Shown here: positions 43,341 to 64,000 of the stretch, piece by piece | Position numbering within the stretch: position 1 is the first letter of the stretch | How the letters are laid out: each line of letters opens with the position of its first letter | From: Escherichia phage EscoHU1 | Length of the DNA stretch: 64,000 nucleotides | Reading direction: 5' to 3' (one strand) | Sequence record: NC_133119.1 | Program-made: the position numbers and the translations under genes | The notes under the pieces: generated by a model | Seen by the model: only the letters and a program-made list of their open reading frames with translations | Databases searched by the model: none | Told to the model about the DNA's origin: nothing

Positions 43341-44199
43341 TTTAGGTATTTTTAAGAACTCTCGTAAAAGTCCATAAAAATACCCGACGGTAGGTAGGGT
43401 CAGCCCCCTCAGATTAAGCTCTGCAGCCCTTCCGTCAGACAATATCTTCCAGTTTAAGTCAGGGTGACTTTGTGGTTATGTTCTCCGTATGTGAAGAACT
43501 CGGTTAGGCTTAGGTCATGACTCCCAGCCTGCTGCTGCCGCTCAACAGGAATTATCGCGAATTACCTGTACTATTGGGCACCATTAGTGACATCTCTCAT
43601 GTCAGCATTTCCCACTCTCATATTCACGCGGTCTGTTAGAATCGCACCTCCGATTTTCGATGCGAAGCTGGATGCCTAGTCTCTAGGTTAAACGGGGCAC
43701 ACACTAGGCAGTGATCCCGAGTTCCGAGTTTGGTTGAGGCCGTCAGGTTTCCTCGTGGTTTAGCTGTTTCGATTCTAACCTAATACTGATCAGGCGGTGT
43801 ACCTCCTGAACCGTCATAGTATGTACTACAGCAGCGAATGCTTATCCGGTATAAGCCCGAGTTATCTGATTCTTTCCGACCGCAGGATTCGAACCTGCAT
43901 CTTCCACCAGTTACGGTTTGATATTACCGTTTATACTAGGACGGCAGTGTTATCACATAAGTCAGTTCGACACCCCACTAACATAAACTAGAGAAGAGTT
44001 TACGAGATTTCGGGACAGCTCCCGAGTTTTCCGCAGATTTTCAGTTCCCTATCAATAGCAATAAGCGTTAGCTCGTAGCCTCTCTCAGAGTACTTACTAG
44101 TCTCCAACTCACCGACTCTATTCAGTGGAATAGCTATCCTAGTAGGAATCACTAAACTCACTCAGCGTAATCGGCTCGCTGTTCTCTAATTTATGAATC
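43341..44199 (-). ncRNA. candidate structured non-coding RNA / long leader (GC-richer ORF-free island)
   Basis: About 860 nt with no ORF of 60 aa or more on the transcribed strand; immediately downstream of promoter 44200-44228; T-arm-like hairpin at about 43875-43895. Confidence 0.35.
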
Positions 44200-44919: not shown

Positions 44920-45387
44920 TTAAGTTTTCTTAACCACAGGCTTATAGAACGTATGACCTTGAATCTTCGTTGTTTTCTTAAACTTCTTTGTCCAGTACGG
45001 TTTATCTTTACCACTATGAAAGTATAACGCTCCATGTGTTGGATCTTGTGGTAAATCAACGTAGTATATCACTCTAGCTAAATTCTTAGCAACTTGCCAA
45101 GCCTCATCGGTTTTATCAACTTTTGGTCTCTTGGCCACCCAAGAGAACTGGTTAGACTGATATACTACTTTACAGTAAGAATCAGGAAAAGTACCAGAGT
45201 TAACACGGTTTTTAGTAACCTGTGCAACTGCGATCATTCCTTTAGTGCCCTCACCTCGTGCTTCGAAGTAGATGTTTTTTGCAATGCAATCAATCTGCTT
45301 TGAGTCGTAGGTCGCATGACTATTGAAGCTATAGGTTAGGGCAGCTATTAAAAGCAAAGCTGCCTTCATTTTATTTACTCCGGCCAA
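44920..45387 (-). CDS. secreted cell-wall hydrolase (SleB/CwlJ-like)
   Basis: 155 aa; signal peptide; YFEARGEG...AVAQVTKNR. Confidence 0.55.
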   Translation of the reverse strand: MAGVNKMKAALLLIAALTYSFNSHATYDSKQIDCIAKNIYFEARGEGTKGMIAVAQVTKNRVNSGTFPDSYCKVVYQSNQFSWVAKRPKVDKTDEAWQVAKNLARVIYYVDLPQDPTHGALYFHSGKDKPYWTKKFKKTTKIQGHTFYKPVVKKT

Positions 45388-45692
45388 TCGTACTCAATAC
45401 GATTAGGGCTTTCTTGATACCCTTCGTCTAGGAGATCATTACGCATGGTCTCTTTAGCTACTGGGTTCGAGGTTACTAGTACCACTTTCTTGGGTCTCTG
45501 ACCAAATTCTAGGAGTAAACGAAGAATTTGATAACCTTCCATACCATCTACAGCCAGATCGTTATCCATATAAACGAAATGACCGGTGGTATCGGTTTTA
45601 TTCAGAAACTCAACAGCGGCTTCGGGGGTTCGAATGATAATGTCCATTCCATGAAGGTTACGCACATCATCAATCAGAATATGAAAAATCAT
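45375..45692 (-). CDS. hypothetical protein
   Basis: 105 aa ORF. Confidence 0.45.
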   Translation of the reverse strand: MIFHILIDDVRNLHGMDIIIRTPEAAVEFLNKTDTTGHFVYMDNDLAVDGMEGYQILRLLLEFGQRPKKVVLVTSNPVAKETMRNDLLDEGYQESPNRIEYDWPE

Positions 45693-45722
45693 AATAGCCT
45701 CGTCTCATCAATTTAAAAATAT

Positions 45723-45751
45723 ATTATACAGAAAACTAAACTAATTAGCAA
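45723..45751 (-). promoter_or_regulatory. early sigma70 promoter (-35 TTGCTA, -10 TATAAT)
   Basis: 17-bp spacer. Confidence 0.7.
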
Positions 45752-46131
45752 ATACATTTTTAAATTGAGAGACTAGTAAACCGATAAACAGCCTAGAGGC
45801 GCCACAGGCCATATCTTATGAGCCATGTACCTTTGATCTAGGGTTTGAATCATCAACGAATACTTTGCATCTTTTAGCTTTAGAAGGTTAGAAGTTTGAG
45901 TTCTTTTAACTTTTCAGCTTTCATACTTGAGCGTTGATCTTTGAAGTTGTGTTGGTACTACCAACGACCGTTTTTACAGTTCAGCTTAAGAGGCTGGTGT
46001 AATAAACATAATCTCCAATAGATTATACTTTATAGTATGGTCAGCGGTCTTATTTAACCTCGTATTTCAACCGCTGCTGCGAGGTAAGATGCTTGGGCTT
46101 TCGTCTACCGATTTACTAGTCTTTTAAATTA

Positions 46132-46770
46132 TTACTCTACTTCGATGAAAGTAGAGGCGTTGGACTCAGACAGAACAAAGTCAACGTTAGTTGCAAAGTC
46201 CTGGTATTCTTCGTCGTGTTGCTTGATCAGCTTTTCTAGCTCCAGCGGATCGATCAGGAACGGAGTGTTCTTGAGTTCCAGCAGGTTAAGCTGCATCTTA
46301 ACTTCATCCTCGGAAGTCTTCTTGTCGCGGGTAGCCATGGTATCCTGCAGACGCTCATACTTGGCGTCAAACTGAGCCTTCTGAGTGTTAAACTTAACAG
46401 TAGCAGCATGGAACTGCTTACGCATGTTAGCCAGCAACTGAGCTTTGAGTTCCATAGAACGCTTAGCTTCGATTGCTTCCGCAACAGTCATAGAGCGAGA
46501 ACCGATCTCTACAACAGTTTCAGCATTGCTCTTGATCAGCGCTGCTTTCAGATGATCACGCTGGGTCATCATATCCAGCAGAGACTGGAAATCAGTTTTA
46601 ATACGAGTAGACAGAGCATCTACTTCGATTGCAGCACCAACGACAACTTGATTCTTGTCTTTACCTTCACCAACAGCAATCAAAAGCTGTTGTTCAGTAG
46701 CTTTACGGATTTTAGCTTCCAGAGACTTGATAGTTGCCAGAGCACGAGTTTTAGAGATACGAGTAGACAT
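46132..46770 (-). CDS. hypothetical coiled-coil protein
   Basis: 212 aa ORF. Confidence 0.5.
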   Translation of the reverse strand: MSTRISKTRALATIKSLEAKIRKATEQQLLIAVGEGKDKNQVVVGAAIEVDALSTRIKTDFQSLLDMMTQRDHLKAALIKSNAETVVEIGSRSMTVAEAIEAKRSMELKAQLLANMRKQFHAATVKFNTQKAQFDAKYERLQDTMATRDKKTSEDEVKMQLNLLELKNTPFLIDPLELEKLIKQHDEEYQDFATNVDFVLSESNASTFIEVE

Positions 46771-53019: not shown

Positions 53020-55350
53020 TTATAACTGACAGCCTCCTGATGCACAGCCTACTGCTTCTTCACCAGCTCCACCACCATTTTCAGTATTAAAATTAGCATA
53101 ATACCAAGTTTTTATACCATACTTAACAGCGATCATGAAGTCACGAACTACTACTGGGCCTGGAATGATTTCATTCTCGAATTTAGAGTAGTCATAATAC
53201 GACTGGAAGCTTGAAGACTGATTCAGGAACTTCTGGTAAACAGCATTCCACTTAATATACTCTACCCTATCAATGTCATAAGCCAGTTTATAGCTCATTA
53301 ATGTATCCCAATCAGTTGCACCTGGAGCAATTGCAATTACTTTATTCACTGCACTACCCTTGATAGATACAATCTTACGAGGCGGTTCAATAGAGTTAGT
53401 AACACCTAGCAGTACAGAGGAACTTTCACCCGGCATCTGAGCAGTCAGAACGGAGTTACGCATACCATATTTCAGGATATCTGCACGTAGAGATTCCCAA
53501 TCCATTTCTAGATCTACAGTTACCAGTTCATCAACAGTTTTCTTGTACGTGTCGATTACCAGAGTTCCTTGTGAAGGCTTAGTACGATTAAACCAGTCAC
53601 ATGCACCTTGTTCTTTAGCCAGACGTACAGAGGCTTTATGCAGGAAGTAGGACAGCTTTTCAGCTTCACGGTGAATCCAGTTACGGGCTTCAACACCTTC
53701 GTAAGCCAAACCTTCTGCTGCCATTGCACCTGCTGCGTTCATCAGGCCAATACCAACGTTTCGACGTTTCTTAGCCGTGTATTCCATAGTTGGGAATGGG
53801 TAATCCTGAATCTCGATGATTGTATCAACGAATTTCAGAAGAATGTAGCAAGTTTTCTCCCATTCAGCCAGAGATTCCATACGACCTAGTACAACACCAC
53901 CTAAGTTACACAGAGATACTTCACCAATATCTTCTGGACGCATATCGTCTAACTGATCTTGGGTCTTATACAGCTCCGTAATGTGATGGAATGGACGGGT
54001 TGGCTGAGTAATTTCAACACAAAGGTTGGTCATACGAATCGGGTCAAGGAAGTTACCATGACGGTTAGATTCACCAATGTGATGAGCATACATACGCCCT
54101 GTTTCCATACGGATACGTAACCAAGTATCTAGGATTTCTTTTGCAGAGATTCTAGGAGCTGCTGGAATTGTTTTTCCTTCGTGGTCGATCTTTGTAAGAG
54201 ATGCCACACGTTTCTCCGCTGCCACGTAGATTTCTTCAAACTTAGCCTCATCTTCTCCATAAAACGCTTCATGAACTTCTGGTGCGTAGAAGTAGGACAT
54301 TAGCGTAATATCTTCGTTTTTCAGGTAACGTTTTAACAGAAGGTTGTTAAAGCTCAGAGAGTAATCCATCTTATCGATTTTATTCTCGTCTGTAGCACGT
54401 TGCTGCTTAACCTGCATCAACTGAATGATTTCAGGATCGAAGTATGGGTAAGACACAGTAGCAGAACCACCACGGGTTTGCTGAGTGTTAGCTTTTACTG
54501 ATCGGTCAATGTGTCGATAATATGGCAGTTTTCCGGAATGCGGGAATGCCCCATTTCGCACCGGATCAGCAATTGATCGGCTTTCAAGATGATACCCGAT
54601 TCCCGCTCTGGCCGCGACCATTTTGAATACGATGTGCTCGGCTGTGTCGATGCTGTCCAGTGTGTCAGTGGAATCCACGAGGCAGCAACTAGCAAATCCA
54701 CGGTCACTAGAGCGCAGACCAACCAGTGGCGGCGTAGGAACGTTGATTTTGTGGAGTGACATTGCGTTGTAGAGGTCGATTGCATCTAGGATTGTCCAGT
54801 TAGGTTGAGATAACATCGCCATTGCCATACCCATGTAGGCAAACTGCGGGGTTTCATAAATTTCACCAGTTGCAATATTACGACGGGAATACTTGTCGAA
54901 GAACTGTTTCAGTCCACCACTAGTGAATAAACGATCGCGATCATGATCAATAACTTGGTTCAGAGCGTCAAACTGATCATCGCTAATCCATGCACTCATG
55001 TCTTCCCAAGCGCCGACACGAACCATATGATCGTGGAAGAAACGCAGAGAAGGAGGTTCAAAGGAATCATATAGGCGTTTACGCATCTGCGCAAGACGTA
55101 ATTCCTTTGCTACAGTATCATATGCTGGGTTGTCTTTGATAAGACCTTCAGCGGCTTTAATTAACACATCTTGGAGTGTATCGGAGTCTACAACACCTTT
55201 GGGCAGATTTTTCAGGGCAGCCATAACTACGGCAGACCAACTTACGTCAGTATCTTTACATGCCCACGCAGCCCAATCATTGAGTTTTTCAGGAGCAAAG
55301 TCCTGAACAGTACCGTCACGTTTAATTACTTTTTCGATACGATGGCTCAT
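53020..55350 (-). CDS. nrdA: ribonucleotide reductase large subunit (class Ia alpha)
   Basis: MSHRIEKVIKRDGT start aligns with E. coli NrdA N-terminus; AAGGAAAG RBS; track's 35-aa extension trimmed. Confidence 0.85.
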   Translation of the reverse strand: MSHRIEKVIKRDGTVQDFAPEKLNDWAAWACKDTDVSWSAVVMAALKNLPKGVVDSDTLQDVLIKAAEGLIKDNPAYDTVAKELRLAQMRKRLYDSFEPPSLRFFHDHMVRVGAWEDMSAWISDDQFDALNQVIDHDRDRLFTSGGLKQFFDKYSRRNIATGEIYETPQFAYMGMAMAMLSQPNWTILDAIDLYNAMSLHKINVPTPPLVGLRSSDRGFASCCLVDSTDTLDSIDTAEHIVFKMVAARAGIGYHLESRSIADPVRNGAFPHSGKLPYYRHIDRSVKANTQQTRGGSATVSYPYFDPEIIQLMQVKQQRATDENKIDKMDYSLSFNNLLLKRYLKNEDITLMSYFYAPEVHEAFYGEDEAKFEEIYVAAEKRVASLTKIDHEGKTIPAAPRISAKEILDTWLRIRMETGRMYAHHIGESNRHGNFLDPIRMTNLCVEITQPTRPFHHITELYKTQDQLDDMRPEDIGEVSLCNLGGVVLGRMESLAEWEKTCYILLKFVDTIIEIQDYPFPTMEYTAKKRRNVGIGLMNAAGAMAAEGLAYEGVEARNWIHREAEKLSYFLHKASVRLAKEQGACDWFNRTKPSQGTLVIDTYKKTVDELVTVDLEMDWESLRADILKYGMRNSVLTAQMPGESSSVLLGVTNSIEPPRKIVSIKGSAVNKVIAIAPGATDWDTLMSYKLAYDIDRVEYIKWNAVYQKFLNQSSSFQSYYDYSKFENEIIPGPVVVRDFMIAVKYGIKTWYYANFNTENGGGAGEEAVGCASGGCQL

Positions 55351-55471
55351 TTGGCTTTCCTTTTTGTAGTTATCAGGATTTAGGAAATAGTTTACTTTAT
55401 TCTCAGTCATTTGGCAAATAAAATTTTCTGATAGAAAAGGCCCAAGTATTTTCATACCCAGGCCTTCTATA

Positions 55472-55714
55472 TTACCAGTCTAGTTTTTCGGCTTGATTAA
55501 TTACTTTTGCTTTCGCATTTGCCCTCAAAAGAATATCTACTGATGTTGAAAGTTCATTATAATTAAAAGGCCGATTTGGATTAGAGGCTACAATTTTCCA
55601 CGCTAGGGTAGTCTTAGGACTTTCTTCCCCTTCCTTACGTGTAATCATATTAGCAGCACTCAGTGAAGTACGGTGGATCTTAGTTTTGCGGTGCAGATGT
55701 ACGACGTTTCCCAT
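55472..55714 (-). CDS. hypothetical protein
   Basis: 80 aa ORF. Confidence 0.4.
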   Translation of the reverse strand: MGNVVHLHRKTKIHRTSLSAANMITRKEGEESPKTTLAWKIVASNPNRPFNYNELSTSVDILLRANAKAKVINQAEKLDW

Positions 55715-55715
55715 A

Positions 55716-56477
55716 TTACACCTTCCCCATATCCTTAAAGATATCGTAGAATGCTTTAGACTCTGGTGAGCGAACGTTGTCGATCAGTTCGATCATAGAG
55801 AAAGGGGAGTTTTCGTACTTCTCATAGACTTCCATAAGAAGTGCTAGACCTGAATCACCCTTGATGTCTTTCTGAGCTATATCCCCACAGATAATTAAAC
55901 GACAATCTTGTCCTACACGAGTCAAGAGACAGACCATTGCTTCAACGGAGATATTCTGAGCTTCATCGACAATTACATAGGAGTTGTTGAAAGTTCGGCC
56001 ACGGGCGTGTTCGATAGCCAGGAATTTGATTTTCTGACGTTCGACATATCCTTTGTAGGCGTGATCACCGATTGCCCATTTCATGCCATCGGCTATTGGT
56101 TCCAACCAAGGCTCTAGCTTTTCTGCTAGATCACCTGGGAGCATACCAAGAGATTTACCTAGAGGTTCGTTCGGACGCACGAGGATCACTTGCTCAATAT
56201 CTGAGTGAATGTCTACGAGTTCCTGAGCTGCAAGAACGGATGGGATAAAGGTTTTACCAGTACCTGGTTCACCGATACCCACAGTCACTGTGTTATTCTT
56301 GATCATATTGATATATGATTTTTGCTCACAGTTTTTACCAACTAGGGATTTAGCAACTGGATTGGCATAATCACCAGAGAAATCTGCTTGAATTACGTTA
56401 CTCTCGTACTTGTTGCCACGCTTTCTTGAACCATTGCGGTTCTCTCTTTTTTGACGTGCTTTTCCCATAAATAACAC
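55716..56477 (-). CDS. phoH: PhoH-like ATPase
   Basis: 253 aa; P-loop GEPGTGKT and PhoH-type downstream motifs. Confidence 0.8.
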   Translation of the reverse strand: MLFMGKARQKRENRNGSRKRGNKYESNVIQADFSGDYANPVAKSLVGKNCEQKSYINMIKNNTVTVGIGEPGTGKTFIPSVLAAQELVDIHSDIEQVILVRPNEPLGKSLGMLPGDLAEKLEPWLEPIADGMKWAIGDHAYKGYVERQKIKFLAIEHARGRTFNNSYVIVDEAQNISVEAMVCLLTRVGQDCRLIICGDIAQKDIKGDSGLALLMEVYEKYENSPFSMIELIDNVRSPESKAFYDIFKDMGKV

Positions 56478-61123: not shown

Positions 61124-61552
61124 ATGTTCAATAATATTTTCATGAAAGAGGTAAATCCTATGCTTCTCAACTTCTGGTGCTCTCTCCCTAATGGTATGTA
61201 TAATGAAACCATCAATCTGCTCAAGATTTGGTGTGAGAATAACGATATCTTCTTATCCTTTAAAGGCCCGCTAGAGGAAGCTCCGTGTATTGGAGTTAGC
61301 GTGGATTTAGGGGAGGGAGTAGAAGAGATTGTAGACTGGAAAGAACTCGATGAAATGGGTCTGGTTTTTGCCTTGAACCATAAGCTGTTTATGCCTGCAA
61401 ATCACCGTCTTATTGTAAATTATCGCACTGGTGAAGCTCCTGCTTTCCAGGTAAATGAACGTGAGGGCTGGTCATATTCGCCCGAGGAAGTAAATGAGGG
61501 GATTCAGAAACTTCGTCGTTTCGGATATATGATCCCAGGTTTAACTGCTTAA
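61124..61552 (+). CDS. hypothetical protein, tandem paralog A
   Basis: 142 aa; C-terminal half similar to next ORF. Confidence 0.5.
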   Translation: MFNNIFMKEVNPMLLNFWCSLPNGMYNETINLLKIWCENNDIFLSFKGPLEEAPCIGVSVDLGEGVEEIVDWKELDEMGLVFALNHKLFMPANHRLIVNYRTGEAPAFQVNEREGWSYSPEEVNEGIQKLRRFGYMIPGLTA

Positions 61553-61561
61553 GGAGGCAGA

Positions 61562-61957
61562 ATGGAACAAGTATTTTGGCGTCAGATAGATCCTAGTTTG
61601 GTAGAGCGTGCTGAGGGGCTCCTTGCACGTTGGTTGGGGGTTGACAAGGTTAGTGTAACATTTCCGTTTACTTCTGTAACAGACCCTAGTGTAGGTGTCT
61701 TTGTGGACGAAAATGAAGATGATGGTTGGGAAGCTGACTGGAATGAATTGTCCAGCATGGGCTTGATTGTTGCCCTCAACTTCTCTATATTCCATCCACG
61801 TGGCTTAGCCATTACACGTGACCCCGAAACTGGTGAATCCCCTTATCTTTTGCAAGTAGAAGATGATATTTGGGAGTACACCGAAGATATTCTCGAAGAA
61901 GCTAAAGGTCAATTAAATCGCATTGGAATCTATGTCCCAGGCCTAAATGATGATTGA
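61562..61957 (+). CDS. hypothetical protein, tandem paralog B
   Basis: 131 aa; GGAGG RBS; shares ...GL[IV][FV]ALN...[IM]PGL with previous ORF. Confidence 0.5.
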   Translation: MEQVFWRQIDPSLVERAEGLLARWLGVDKVSVTFPFTSVTDPSVGVFVDENEDDGWEADWNELSSMGLIVALNFSIFHPRGLAITRDPETGESPYLLQVEDDIWEYTEDILEEAKGQLNRIGIYVPGLNDD

Positions 61958-61980
61958 TTTTCATTAGCTCAATCCTGATT

Positions 61981-62001
61981 ACCGAGTCAAAATGACTCGG
62001 T
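61981..62001 (+). terminator. rho-independent terminator
   Basis: ACCGAGTCA-AAAT-GACTCGGT then TTTCTCT. Confidence 0.65.
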
Positions 62002-62062
62002 TTTCTCTGTGCTCAAGGACACTGATAGCACCTTCGGAAAAATTTTACTTGCAGGATGCTCA

Positions 62063-62075
62063 AAATCTTGATATA
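62063..62075 (+). promoter_or_regulatory. candidate extended -10 promoter (TGATATAAT)
   Basis: TG-N-TATAAT read directly; no clear -35. Confidence 0.35.
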
Positions 62076-62573
62076 ATATTTATATTGAATTGAGAGACAT
62101 TAGTAAAAATTGATTTTGCTAATTTTTCTTGTTTACAATCCGCAATACGGAACAGTTAGGCTGCCCCATTAAGGGTTGTTTTAACTATTACTAGTGTTTA
62201 TACTGCATTAGTTAATTATCAATTAAGTGATCTGCGTACCCTGAATTCGGAAAGGTAAATCCAAACCGTGCATATTTAGCTCGTTATATAGGCAGAGTTT
62301 TATATGGGGGTGCGAACGAAAAGAGCAGCGAATGGTGACACGTCCAGTAGCCACCTACCAATAGGATAGTGAGGGCAATCAGAATCGGCTTAGCGGCCAA
62401 TGACCTAGGTTCTGATCTGGATAAGAGTTAAGAGAGCGCAGCACTGAGGTATGATAACTTATTCATACTGCTTGATGATGATTAATGTTTGTGTAAATGG
62501 TAGTAATAGTTGTTCTATTCTTCTGAATAGTCCTAAAGAAAGATATCCGAATAACCAACATAGGAGTATTGTT

Positions 62574-64000
62574 GTGTTCTCAATCCTACAAGGTCACGCA
62601 GGATTTTCCAGAGATAAAGCCACTGGCATCTGGAAAGAGATCAAAGTGGAAGATTACACCTTTGCAAAGCGATTCTCTAAAGAGCATCCAGAAGGTAAAC
62701 CAGCTTCCATGCCCTTCAAATTTGATGTACTTGAAGAACTTGACCCGCAAAACCTTGCTGAAATGTTACCTATCATGCGTCGTCTTACCAAAGACCCGCA
62801 TATTGTAGCTATTCGTGGTAAATGTTTAGCCCCAAAAGATAATGTGCGTCGTACCAGGGGAAACTTTAACGTATCCAATCCTAGTCATATTATTGCTATG
62901 GACGTGGATGGTATTGTAGATACTGGTGGTTATGACAAGTTTAATCTTGTTGGCATGGCACGTCATATTATTAAGATGTTGAATAGTATTAGCGAGGATA
63001 TGTTTCCTCTTGATGCAGGGTTTATTGCCCATGCATCGTCTTCGGCTGGATTAAAACCAGGTATCCGAATGCACTTAATGCTAGAATCTAATGTCAAGGT
63101 AACGCAGGGACAGTTAAAGTTCTTATTTACATCTATCAATGACAGTAGTAAGCAAAAGTATGGCTTTGATATTGCTGACTTAGCTTATTATTCTTCTGTT
63201 CAGCTTCACTATTTTGCAGATCCCTTATTTGATGATGGTATAGTCGATCCGTTTAAAGCGGAGAATAAACCACGTCTTGTATATGTTAAGGGTTCGAAGG
63301 TGAATCTACCTAATAACCTAGTTGACTTTGAAACAACTAGAGGTGAGTTTAAAGAAGAGTTCTACTCCTTACTTGATCAAATTAAAGGCAAGAAGGCTGC
63401 ATCTGATAAAGTGGAAGAAACCATCAGCGAACTAGAAGAAGCTGAGGATGGAGTGTACCTGCGTATTATCCCAAAACTTTATCACAGAGCGTTAGAAGAT
63501 GGTGTTGACTTTACGTGGTTAGAACGTGAGATTAAACCAGCTTTATCTGAGTATATTGCGACTAAAGATAATAGTCGTAATATTCAAGATTACTTTAATA
63601 ACGGTCGTAAGCAGGCTCTCAAAGCCTTTGTAAATAACTCCAAACGTGAGATTCCACCAAACTTAAAAGGTGTACCATTAAAACGTCTAGACACAGATTC
63701 TCCACCAGAAGTTCCGTACCTGAAAATTAACATTGTACCCCCAAAAGGACATTTAACATTTGTTAAGGCAAGTCTTGGTACGGGTAAAACTACAGCAGTA
63801 ACTAAGTGGCTAGATGCAGGTGTTCTTCCAGGAAACTTTATTGCAATCACAAATACTAGGGCACTTGTATCTTCTAACGCGAAGAAATTCGGTGCTGGTC
63901 AGTATGATAAGTCAGTTGATATGCTGAACTTCAAACGTGGTGCCATTGATCGTATGTCTTCAACTATTCACTCTATCCATAAGTTCAAGAGCTTTGTGGG
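62574..64000 (+). CDS. replication protein, primase-helicase-like, N-terminal part (runs off window)
   Basis: Open frame from GTG after TAGGAG RBS to window end; Walker A LGTGKTT near 63780; start uncertain. Confidence 0.5.
   Translation, partial: MFSILQGHAGFSRDKATGIWKEIKVEDYTFAKRFSKEHPEGKPASMPFKFDVLEELDPQNLAEMLPIMRRLTKDPHIVAIRGKCLAPKDNVRRTRGNFNVSNPSHIIAMDVDGIVDTGGYDKFNLVGMARHIIKMLNSISEDMFPLDAGFIAHASSSAGLKPGIRMHLMLESNVKVTQGQLKFLFTSINDSSKQKYGFDIADLAYYSSVQLHYFADPLFDDGIVDPFKAENKPRLVYVKGSKVNLPNNLVDFETTRGEFKEEFYSLLDQIKGKKAASDKVEETISELEEAEDGVYLRIIPKLYHRALEDGVDFTWLEREIKPALSEYIATKDNSRNIQDYFNNGRKQALKAFVNNSKREIPPNLKGVPLKRLDTDSPPEVPYLKINIVPPKGHLTFVKASLGTGKTTAVTKWLDAGVLPGNFIAITNTRALVSSNAKKFGAGQYDKSVDMLNFKRGAIDRMSSTIHSIHKFKSFV

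Follow-up and report, generated by a model that had tools for sequence, protein, structure and literature searches.

A probable structured RNA gene behind the T5.085 homologue and a probable structured leader of the D2 helicase mRNA in two gaps of a T5-like phage genome

Results and Discussion

Gene content and conservation of the two gaps

The window, i.e. the whole stretch of DNA analysed here, comprises 64,000 nt of Escherichia phage EscoHU1 (NC_133119.1) and contains two gaps poor in open reading frames (ORFs), region 1 (45752-46131) and region 2 (62002-62573), which are the subject of this study. Region 1 probably encodes, on the minus strand, a structured non-coding RNA of about 355 nt; region 2 is probably the structured leader, about 490 nt long, with which the D2 helicase mRNA begins. 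The window belongs to a T5-like phage (Epseptimavirus), with 99.1% identity to Escherichia phage EPS7 around region 1 and 99.6% identity to Salmonella phages around region 2. It possesses 28 tRNA genes on the minus strand according to Rfam models and ARAGORN. In T5 (AY543070), the counterpart of region 1 is the space between T5.085 and T5.084, and that of region 2 the space between T5.107 and T5.108 (D2).

The full intergenic span of region 1 (45693-46131) is flanked by two minus-strand genes, the homologues of T5.085 (46132-46770) and of T5.084 (45375-45692). The 3' limit of the region 1 RNA is marked by the T5-type promoter of the T5.084 homologue, a gene with a cREC_REC domain; this promoter (TTGCTA-17-TATAAT, 45723-45751, minus strand) is carried as an annotated promoter in the records of T5 and AKFV33. 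An earlier reading of the window, made from its sequence and hereafter called the original prediction, had placed region 1 between a gene end and the next promoter, and 45752-46131 indeed runs exactly from the stop codon of the T5.085 homologue to the T5-type promoter. Right as it was on position, the original prediction gave no interpretation of region 1 and missed its main point, the structured-RNA gene. Region 2 has a full span of 61958-62573, from the T5.107 homologue (61562-61957) to the D2 gene.

Both gaps are ORF-poor at these coordinates, as had been described. The longest ORFs of region 1 comprise 27 amino acids (minus strand) and 26 amino acids (plus strand), those of region 2 43, 38 and 32 amino acids (minus strand) and 33 amino acids (plus strand). 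Small conserved ORFs that fully account for the space had been named as the finding that would speak against the original prediction. A few annotators have called small ORFs in these gaps. The 27-amino-acid ORF of region 1 finds matches in the closest clade only, where the nucleotide sequence itself is conserved, and the small minus-strand ORFs of region 2 are lost in the variant-B T5-like phages, so that these ORFs are confined to close relatives and do not fill the space.

Of the 453 phage records that match region 1, 435 do so with 90-100% nucleotide identity across at least 80% of the region, and region 2 is likewise strongly conserved among T5-like phages. RNA structure prediction, which had been suggested as a check, shows that both gaps fold much better than shuffled sequence by minimum free energy (z = -4.6 for the sense strand of region 1, z = -4.4 for the plus strand of region 2). 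The two regions are not chance spacers, because they are conserved and fold far better than shuffles. Within the window, the only part of either region that occurs in additional copies is the T5 promoter, and a covariance-model scan of the window finds no further copy of the region 1 RNA in region 2.

Architecture of the region 1 RNA

The whole RNA (45769-46123, minus strand, as are all of its parts) measures about 355 nt between the outer ends of a terminal helix, P1; its extent follows from the P1 duplex, the core found with nhmmer and a covariance model. About 8 nt separate its start from the end of the T5.085 homologue (phrog_1491) at the stop codon. Members of the family described below have a length of 300-390 nt and possess 4-11 repeated motifs.

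The 5' strand of P1, AAGACUAGUAAAUCGGUAGACGA (46101-46123), ends in the family-wide ...CG/A junction, and its 3' strand, CUGUUUAUCGGUUUACUAGUCUC (45769-45791), directly follows a conserved GGCUG (45789-45793). In the window, positions 46123 to 46101 pair with 45791 to 45769 over 21 bp. The inner end of P1 consists family-wide of a C-G pair, a G.U pair and then an unpaired A. Across the family, P1 comprises 13-28 bp; its 5' segment ends in ...CG/A and starts 3-60 nt past the stop codon, its 3' segment begins right after GGC/UG, and in nearly every member the helix is formed, from sequences that are unrelated between phages. Several members possess an additional hairpin between the stop codon and P1.

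An A-rich linker, J1, AAGCCCAAGCAUCUU (46086-46100), with 17-22 nt across the family, connects P1 to an H-type pseudoknot, ACCUCG-cag-CAGCGGUU-gaaaua-CGAGGU-uaaauaa-GACCGCUG (46042-46085), which has equivalents of different sequence in other members. The pseudoknot of the window, about 17 nt from P1, is of the form by which the family was scored, i.e. compact and 8-40 nt after P1 (score 12.6). In the family, stem S1 comprises 4-7 bp and stem S2 6-9 bp, loop L2 usually has 0 nt and loop L3 is A-rich; the stem sequences are wholly different between members. The pseudoknot is followed by a variable region of three local hairpins (45951-46041), lineage-specific and unconserved outside the T5-like phages. 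At the position of this variable region, Erwinia phage RAY (locus L090, 2253-2316) possesses a permuted tRNA-like module of T-arm, closed acceptor hairpin and D-arm, with 44.5 bits to the Rfam YrlA model against a gathering cut-off of 69 bits.

Next follows an A-rich region of about 100 nt with YAAAGNU heptamer repeats (45847-45950), recognised in the alignment. The repeat array consists of 39% A; AAAG occurs 178 times against 42.6 expected (4.2-fold), with spacing peaks at 7, 14 and 21 nt. The closing domain (P-last, 45792-45842) pairs CCUAG (45842-45838) with CUAGG (45796-45792), with AAAYCC before and GCUG after this helix. Its family form is AAAUC-CNNNG ... CNNNG-GCUG, running straight into the 3' strand of P1. 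Inside, a hairpin occupies 45805-45827 in the window: most members possess a stem NNGU/RCNN with a loop G...AUUG, the T5-like clade a stem NNNU/GNNN with a loop CAYAAGAUAU. The inner closing domain and the variable region were not settled by the MAFFT alignment.

Distribution of the region 1 RNA

Distant homologues of the T5.085-like protein, with 29-42% identity, are present in many IMG/VR contigs, nearly all of which have 300-500 nt poor in ORFs behind the gene. With the window gap as the sole query sequence, nhmmer already yields a weak match at the corresponding position in ten contigs in which the protein is only 33-42% identical. After three iterations, the RNA core (window 45772-45952) is found in 74 of 79 viral loci; in bacteria, it lies downstream of the gene on the same strand in 72 of 80 loci. 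All nhmmer matches are located on the strand of the gene, 100-250 nt past its stop codon.

According to tblastn, the T5.085-like protein occurs in 742 phage records, 306 of them below 60% identity; the hosts include Pseudomonas, Vibrio, Bacillus, Klebsiella, Erwinia, Lactococcus and Clostridium. Bacillus phage Bcp1, Erwinia jumbo phage RAY, Klebsiella phage KB57 and Lactococcus phage AM5 possess 381-502 unannotated nucleotides after the gene. Three of these four are matched by the nucleotide profile; in the remaining one, AM5, the P1 helix, GGCUG and a terminator are seen by eye. Protein and RNA also form a pair in bacterial genomes, mostly of Bacillota (Lysinibacillus, Solibacillus, Brevibacillus, Paenibacillus, the Bacillus pumilus group) and in some Clostridia, where the pair adjoins ordinary housekeeping genes, e.g. 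those of a major facilitator superfamily (MFS) transporter or a RumA-like methyltransferase. The pair is therefore not phage-specific. The same RNA thus follows homologues of the same protein in T5-like phages, Vequintavirinae, Herelleviridae, jumbo phages, lactococcal phages and the chromosomes of Bacillota. In the neighbourhoods of the family loci, no third gene is conserved beside the pair.

A location among tRNA genes is frequent (T5, KB57 and the loci L038, L066 and L075). Of 71 bacterial loci, 41 have an intrinsic terminator after the RNA, as do Bcp1, AM5 and Solibacillus; T5-like phages have the next promoter immediately behind the RNA.

Some relatives carry insertions in this interval. 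Salmonella phage bobsandoy (locus L001, 1974-2510) possesses an insertion of 537 nt with a homing-endonuclease ORF, the insertion point of which corresponds to window position 45772; it touches no more than the 3 bp at the outer 3' edge of P1, and so spares the RNA. An insertion of about 180 nt is present in the same interval in phage KKP_3822.

Compensatory changes and an independent model

Of 45 non-redundant members, 25 pair at 12 of 12 P1 positions without a gap; among 2250 shuffled controls, 5 do so. G.U pairs make up 87 of 396 P1 pairs (22%), and since these would be A.C mismatches on the opposite strand, they fix the strand of the RNA. Among the 30 members with a clean P1, 20 possess the pseudoknot, compared to 12 of 300 shuffles (4%). 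In the closing helix (5 bp, RNAalifold), four of the five pairs show compensatory changes; 97% of the cells are paired, against 70% in shuffles and at most 58% in slid registers, and the covariation score of 0.72, against 0.19, is reached by none of 500 shuffles. The inner hairpin of the closing domain covaries as well, so that P1, pseudoknot, closing helix and inner hairpin all show compensatory change.

A covariance model of the 3' domain (R1: repeats, AAAUCC helix and GGCUG) was built from the members other than T5-like phages, with Av-05, L038 and KB57 also left out. Against the 64-kb window it yields a single significant match, full length, at 45788-45893 on the minus strand (37.6 bits, E about 1.7e-4, a rough value from a shortened calibration).

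The protein encoded upstream

The T5.085 homologue (46132-46770, minus strand) encodes 212 amino acids and matches phrog_1491 with E 4.5e-81. Searches of Pfam, PHROGs, NCBIfam and PDB sequences returned no function for the protein, and no Pfam or NCBIfam family above threshold. Its AlphaFold model predicts a helical bundle with a small sheet (predicted local distance difference test, pLDDT, 88). The sole match of a fold search is PDB 3KDQ, a member of the DIP1984 family of unknown function (Foldseek probability 0.99, E 7e-3, template modelling (TM) score 0.38-0.49); the sequence profile match is weak (E 0.11).

Members of phrog_1491 frequently bear the label "tail fiber protein". This label found no support, in view of the helical fold, the lack of a fibre-like match, the position of the gene in the early tRNA region and the homologues in bacterial chromosomes; it appears to be a widespread propagated mis-annotation.

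The gene after region 1, the T5.084 homologue (45375-45692, minus strand), matches PF20274, cREC_REC, "cyclic-phosphate processing receiver domain", with E 1e-14. This family is associated with RNA-repair systems. Nothing on T5.084 to T5.086 was found in the literature searched.

Comparison with catalogued RNAs

In the window, Rfam 15 detects only tRNAs at its gathering thresholds, and no meaningful match at E<=5 in either region. In 22 related region 1 loci, searched at E<=1, no family covers the RNA; the only matches are the sub-threshold YrlA module of RAY and an adjacent skipping-rope RNA. The RNA is unannotated in all of the about 450 T5-like genome records, as well as in Herelleviridae, Vequintavirinae, jumbo and lactococcal phages. 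Neither Rfam 15 nor annotated phage records nor the literature searched, including the Breaker-lab genome surveys, yielded a description of it. A survey of 10,006 viral structured-RNA candidates (PMC10690425) describes nothing like it, although its catalogue may contain a fragment. We regard region 1 as holding a real and apparently undescribed class of RNA with a dedicated partner gene.

That the RNA is a degenerate member of a known family, i.e. transfer-messenger RNA (tmRNA), ribonuclease P (RNase P) RNA or a YrlA-type Y RNA, is very unlikely. The region 1 RNA and tmRNA both possess a long helix that joins the ends, followed by a pseudoknot (PK1 in tmRNA), an A-rich single strand and further structure, at a length of about 350 nt and among tRNA genes. 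In contrast to tmRNA, the region 1 RNA lacks an acceptor/T-arm domain, a CCA end and a tag reading frame, and no SmpB gene is adjacent. P1 lies within 8 nt of the stop codon and therefore leaves no room for a tmRNA acceptor strand, nor is there room outside P1 for an acceptor/T-arm domain; in the window, ARAGORN finds the 28 tRNAs and no tmRNA, and the Rfam tmRNA models are silent. The motif AAAUCC...GGCUG resembles AAGUCC...GGCUU, the P4 strands of RNase P. The AAAUCC/GGCUG helix encloses only about 45 nt, not the body of the RNA, so that an RNase P topology is unsupported; RNase P RNA was rejected as there is no Rfam RNase P match and the helix does not, like the P4 pseudoknot that joins CR-I and CR-V, surround catalytic and specificity domains. 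YrlA (RF02553) with the Ro orthologue Rsr shares other features: an RNA beside its partner gene, with a long stem of 5' and 3' ends enclosing modules, in bacteria and phages, and RAY adds its YrlA-like module. However, the tRNA-like module is present in RAY only, there below threshold, and is lacking in the window; the YrlA model finds no match in members other than RAY, and no gene for Rsr or another TROVE/Ro protein is adjacent. The partner in region 1 is a 212-amino-acid helical DIP1984-like protein instead of a TROVE/Ro protein, the region 1 RNA is three times longer, and YrlA has no counterpart to its pseudoknot, its heptamer repeats or its AAAUCC...GGCUG domain.

ROOL and GOLLD are orphan structured RNAs of phages, prophages and Bacillota, often beside tRNA genes (PMC12286853; PMC5737381). 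They share this setting, as does the skipping-rope RNA, with the region 1 RNA. ROOL and GOLLD possess no sequence or model similarity to it and are longer (about 580-800 nt, compared to 300-390 nt); unlike them, the region 1 RNA is strictly linked to one protein gene and contains a repeat array. In Paenibacillus xylaniclasticus (locus L126), a skipping-rope RNA (RF02924, 2528-2656, 54.1 bits, above threshold) is located directly 3' of a region 1-type RNA (core 2264-2435), which places two orphan RNAs in tandem.

The repeat array itself is comparable to the (G/U)AG repeats of the trp leader, bound by the 11-mer TRAP, and to the GGA repeats of CsrB and RsmZ, bound by CsrA. All present a short motif in a single strand (here AAAG, 4-11 times, at 7-nt spacing), the layout to be expected in a multivalent platform for protein binding. 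Motif and spacing differ, the region 1 array is embedded in a large folded RNA, and the analogy is one of mechanism only.

Proposed role of the region 1 RNA

Region 1 carries a conserved, strand-specific and covarying RNA structure that is strictly linked to one protein gene. Since P1 lies almost directly behind the stop codon, with a few nucleotides or a short hairpin in between, no room is left for a promoter of its own, and the RNA would be made by read-through, i.e. co-transcribed with the upstream gene from the promoter of that gene. Its release may occur by cleavage in or near the long P1 duplex. The RNA probably acts jointly with the co-encoded helical DIP1984-like protein, and the evenly spaced AAAG repeats might serve as a multivalent platform for an oligomeric binder, as in TRAP and CsrA systems. 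The neighbourhood of tRNA genes and the tRNA-like module of RAY point, speculatively, to RNA or translation biology. We tentatively propose that the T5.085-like protein and its downstream RNA are the two components of an unrecognised RNA-protein module with a new class of RNA, present in Bacillota chromosomes and in at least 700 large virulent phages of Gram-negative and Gram-positive hosts, T5 among them, with a function in tRNA or translation biology or in the conflict between host and phage.

Several points weigh against this reading of region 1. The transcript and its ends are deduced from sequence, the E-value of model R1 is rough, and the fold is settled neither for the middle of the RNA, with its variable hairpins, nor for the repeat region. 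G.T pairs also form in single-stranded DNA, so that the G.U argument, taken by itself, would also allow DNA with a strand-specific structure. A further weakness lies in the partner protein, which is mildly acidic (isoelectric point 5.2-7.9 in 41 of 42 homologues) and in which domain searches found no recognisable RNA-binding domain; direct binding of the RNA by this protein is therefore a guess from linkage alone, and a weakened one. Finally, the co-location of gene and RNA fits a cis-acting element of the 3' untranslated region (UTR) equally well.

The latter is the main rival for region 1: the element would act in cis in the T5.085 mRNA, as a stabiliser, an exonuclease block or a device of translational feedback, and would not be a released, trans-acting RNA or part of a ribonucleoprotein. 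The RNA always lies directly downstream on the same strand without space for a promoter, its acidic partner has no recognisable RNA-binding domain and no third partner gene is conserved, all of which a 3' UTR element would account for. We nevertheless regard it as unlikely, as 300-390 nt with a pseudoknot, a terminal helix of 13-28 bp and 4-11 motifs are far more elaborate than known bacterial 3' stabilisers, the hairpin between stop codon and P1 in several members suggests that gene and RNA are handled separately, and one member possesses a tRNA-like module. Extremely improbable is that the two gaps are non-functional, i.e. decayed genes, remnants of mobile elements or space for small ORFs. 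Such a reading could draw on the homing endonuclease inserted beside region 1 in some relatives and on the small ORFs called here by a few annotators. It is already contradicted by the covariation, with compensatory changes in all helices; moreover, nucleotide conservation extends to phages with only about 35% identity in the flanking protein, the small ORFs are lost past close relatives, and the endonuclease insertion spares the RNA. A homing-endonuclease remnant was rejected for region 1, as the insertion of bobsandoy is located beside the RNA and not inside it.

The RNA has escaped annotation through seventy years of work on T5. Supported by covariation, about 350 nt long and tied to one conserved protein in phages and in chromosomes, it constitutes a directly testable RNA-protein system, and T5, EPS7 and the Bacillus and Lysinibacillus strains are all genetically tractable. 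The region 1 RNA would join the small set of large orphan RNAs of bacteria and phages (ROOL, GOLLD, OLE, raiA), and the finding would also correct the widely propagated "tail fiber protein" annotation.

The probable leader of the D2 helicase gene

Region 2 is preceded by the intrinsic terminator of the upstream operon (61981-62001, 9-bp stem and U tract); all features of this region lie on the plus strand. The original prediction had placed it between a terminator and a primase-helicase gene. The position stands; the gene is that of the D2 helicase of superfamily 2 (SF2), the "replication origin binding protein" (phrog_3712), which bears the name primase in only some records. The promoter (62049-62077), of the sigma-70/T5 type, consists of TTGCAG (62049-62054), a 17-nt spacer and the predicted extended -10 element, TGaTATAAT (62069-62077), which is indeed part of an annotated promoter in T5 (AY543070); it shares the promoter repeat that occurs elsewhere in the window. 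From the position of the promoter, the leader would start at 62084 and extend to 62573, i.e. over about 490 nt. A Shine-Dalgarno motif AGGAG (62562-62566) and the GTG start codon of D2 follow (62562-62576 together); the start is the GTG at 62574, not 62576. No terminator is present between 62078 and 62573.

The minimum-free-energy fold predicts hairpins H1 (62092-62130) and H2 (62135-62179), and a further hairpin at 62515-62530. Fold and comparison agree on a long-range helix, P3, of 21 bp between 62183-62203 and 62491-62511, enclosing a central domain of 287 nt. Inside this domain, comparison of T5-like variants reveals a hairpin (62378-62416) in which the loop GGCUUAGCGGCC is conserved and the stem covaries. 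Of the two strands of region 2, the plus strand folds better than the minus strand (z -4.4 vs -2.3). Among close T5-like phages (compared with loci L107-L115), the central domain (62204-62490) exists in two strongly diverged variants, while the flanks and the closing helix are conserved. Both variants keep P3 via different sequences and G.U changes, and both keep the hairpin, with its loop GGCUUAGCGGCC invariant and its stem covarying. An analogous long-range helix is present in relatives from Klebsiella (L119) and Providencia (L122), in PR1 with arms at 1518-1534 and 1813-1829, 278 nt apart. Upstream of the D2 homologue, Vibrio phage Brizo possesses an unannotated gap of 712 nt and D420 about 860 nt with tiny ORFs only. 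Rfam holds no family for the D2 leader, searched with the window region and four related loci. In some phages, e.g. 26175II and DT571/2, the leader contains an additional insertion of about 97 nt.

The leader most likely controls the expression of D2, and it can be classified as an ordinary-to-interesting long structured leader. Long autoregulated phage leaders such as that of T4 gene 32 are alike in placing a long structured untranslated RNA at a replication gene, although no operator is known for D2. The "long regulated leader" of the original prediction fits these results, with about 490 structured nucleotides and a long-range helix kept in other genera; it is a weakness that the comparison is based on only three or four lineages.

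Its alternative, a replication-origin-like region, gained no support. Region 2 would then be or contain an origin at which transcription through a structured untranslated stretch primes or opens the DNA beside the gene of an origin-binding helicase, as at ColE1 RNA II, in T7 or at the T4 R-loop origins. Such a role would suit the location directly upstream of the UL9-like D2 helicase (PMC3632103), at 48.4-48.9% of the T5 genome, the strong promoter followed by about 490 untranslated nucleotides, and the long ORF-poor zone before D2 that is found even in Vibrio phages (712 nt in Brizo). The same layout is shared by the transcription-dependent origins (ColE1 RNA II, the T7 primary origin, T4 oriF and oriG), with a strong promoter and a long structured untranslated RNA at a replication gene. 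However, no R-loop or DNA-unwinding element, iterons or skew signal were found in region 2. The window, Brizo, D420 and PR1 contain no iterons or repeated boxes, only weak two-copy repeats, and the cumulative GC-skew minimum is located at 54-56 kb, 6-8 kb away, which leaves an origin role unsupported. Close relatives differ in the central 290 nt, which exist in two diverged variants, and the G.U changes in the covariation together with the stronger plus-strand fold argue for a constraint at the level of RNA. The D2 paper names no origin site (PMC3632103). The evidence thus favours an RNA-level regulatory leader over a transcription-primed origin, which we consider improbable. As a leader, region 2 presents a defined target for studying how T5 controls its replication initiator.

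Other features of the window

The cumulative GC-skew minimum (about 54000-56000) coincides with the switch of genes from the minus to the plus strand, a point of divergent transcription 6-8 kb upstream of the D2 leader. Another unexplained RNA locus is present at 43341-44060 (minus strand), beside tRNA-Arg; it is homologous to T5 "rnaX, stable RNA with unknown functions" (AY543070, 40848-41566). This stretch contains a borderline Rfam tRNA match (43874-43945, 29.3 bits, cut-off 29) that is not called by ARAGORN. Just upstream of region 2, two tandem paralogous genes (61124-61552 and 61562-61957, plus strand) possess two DUF7415 repeats (PF24187) each.

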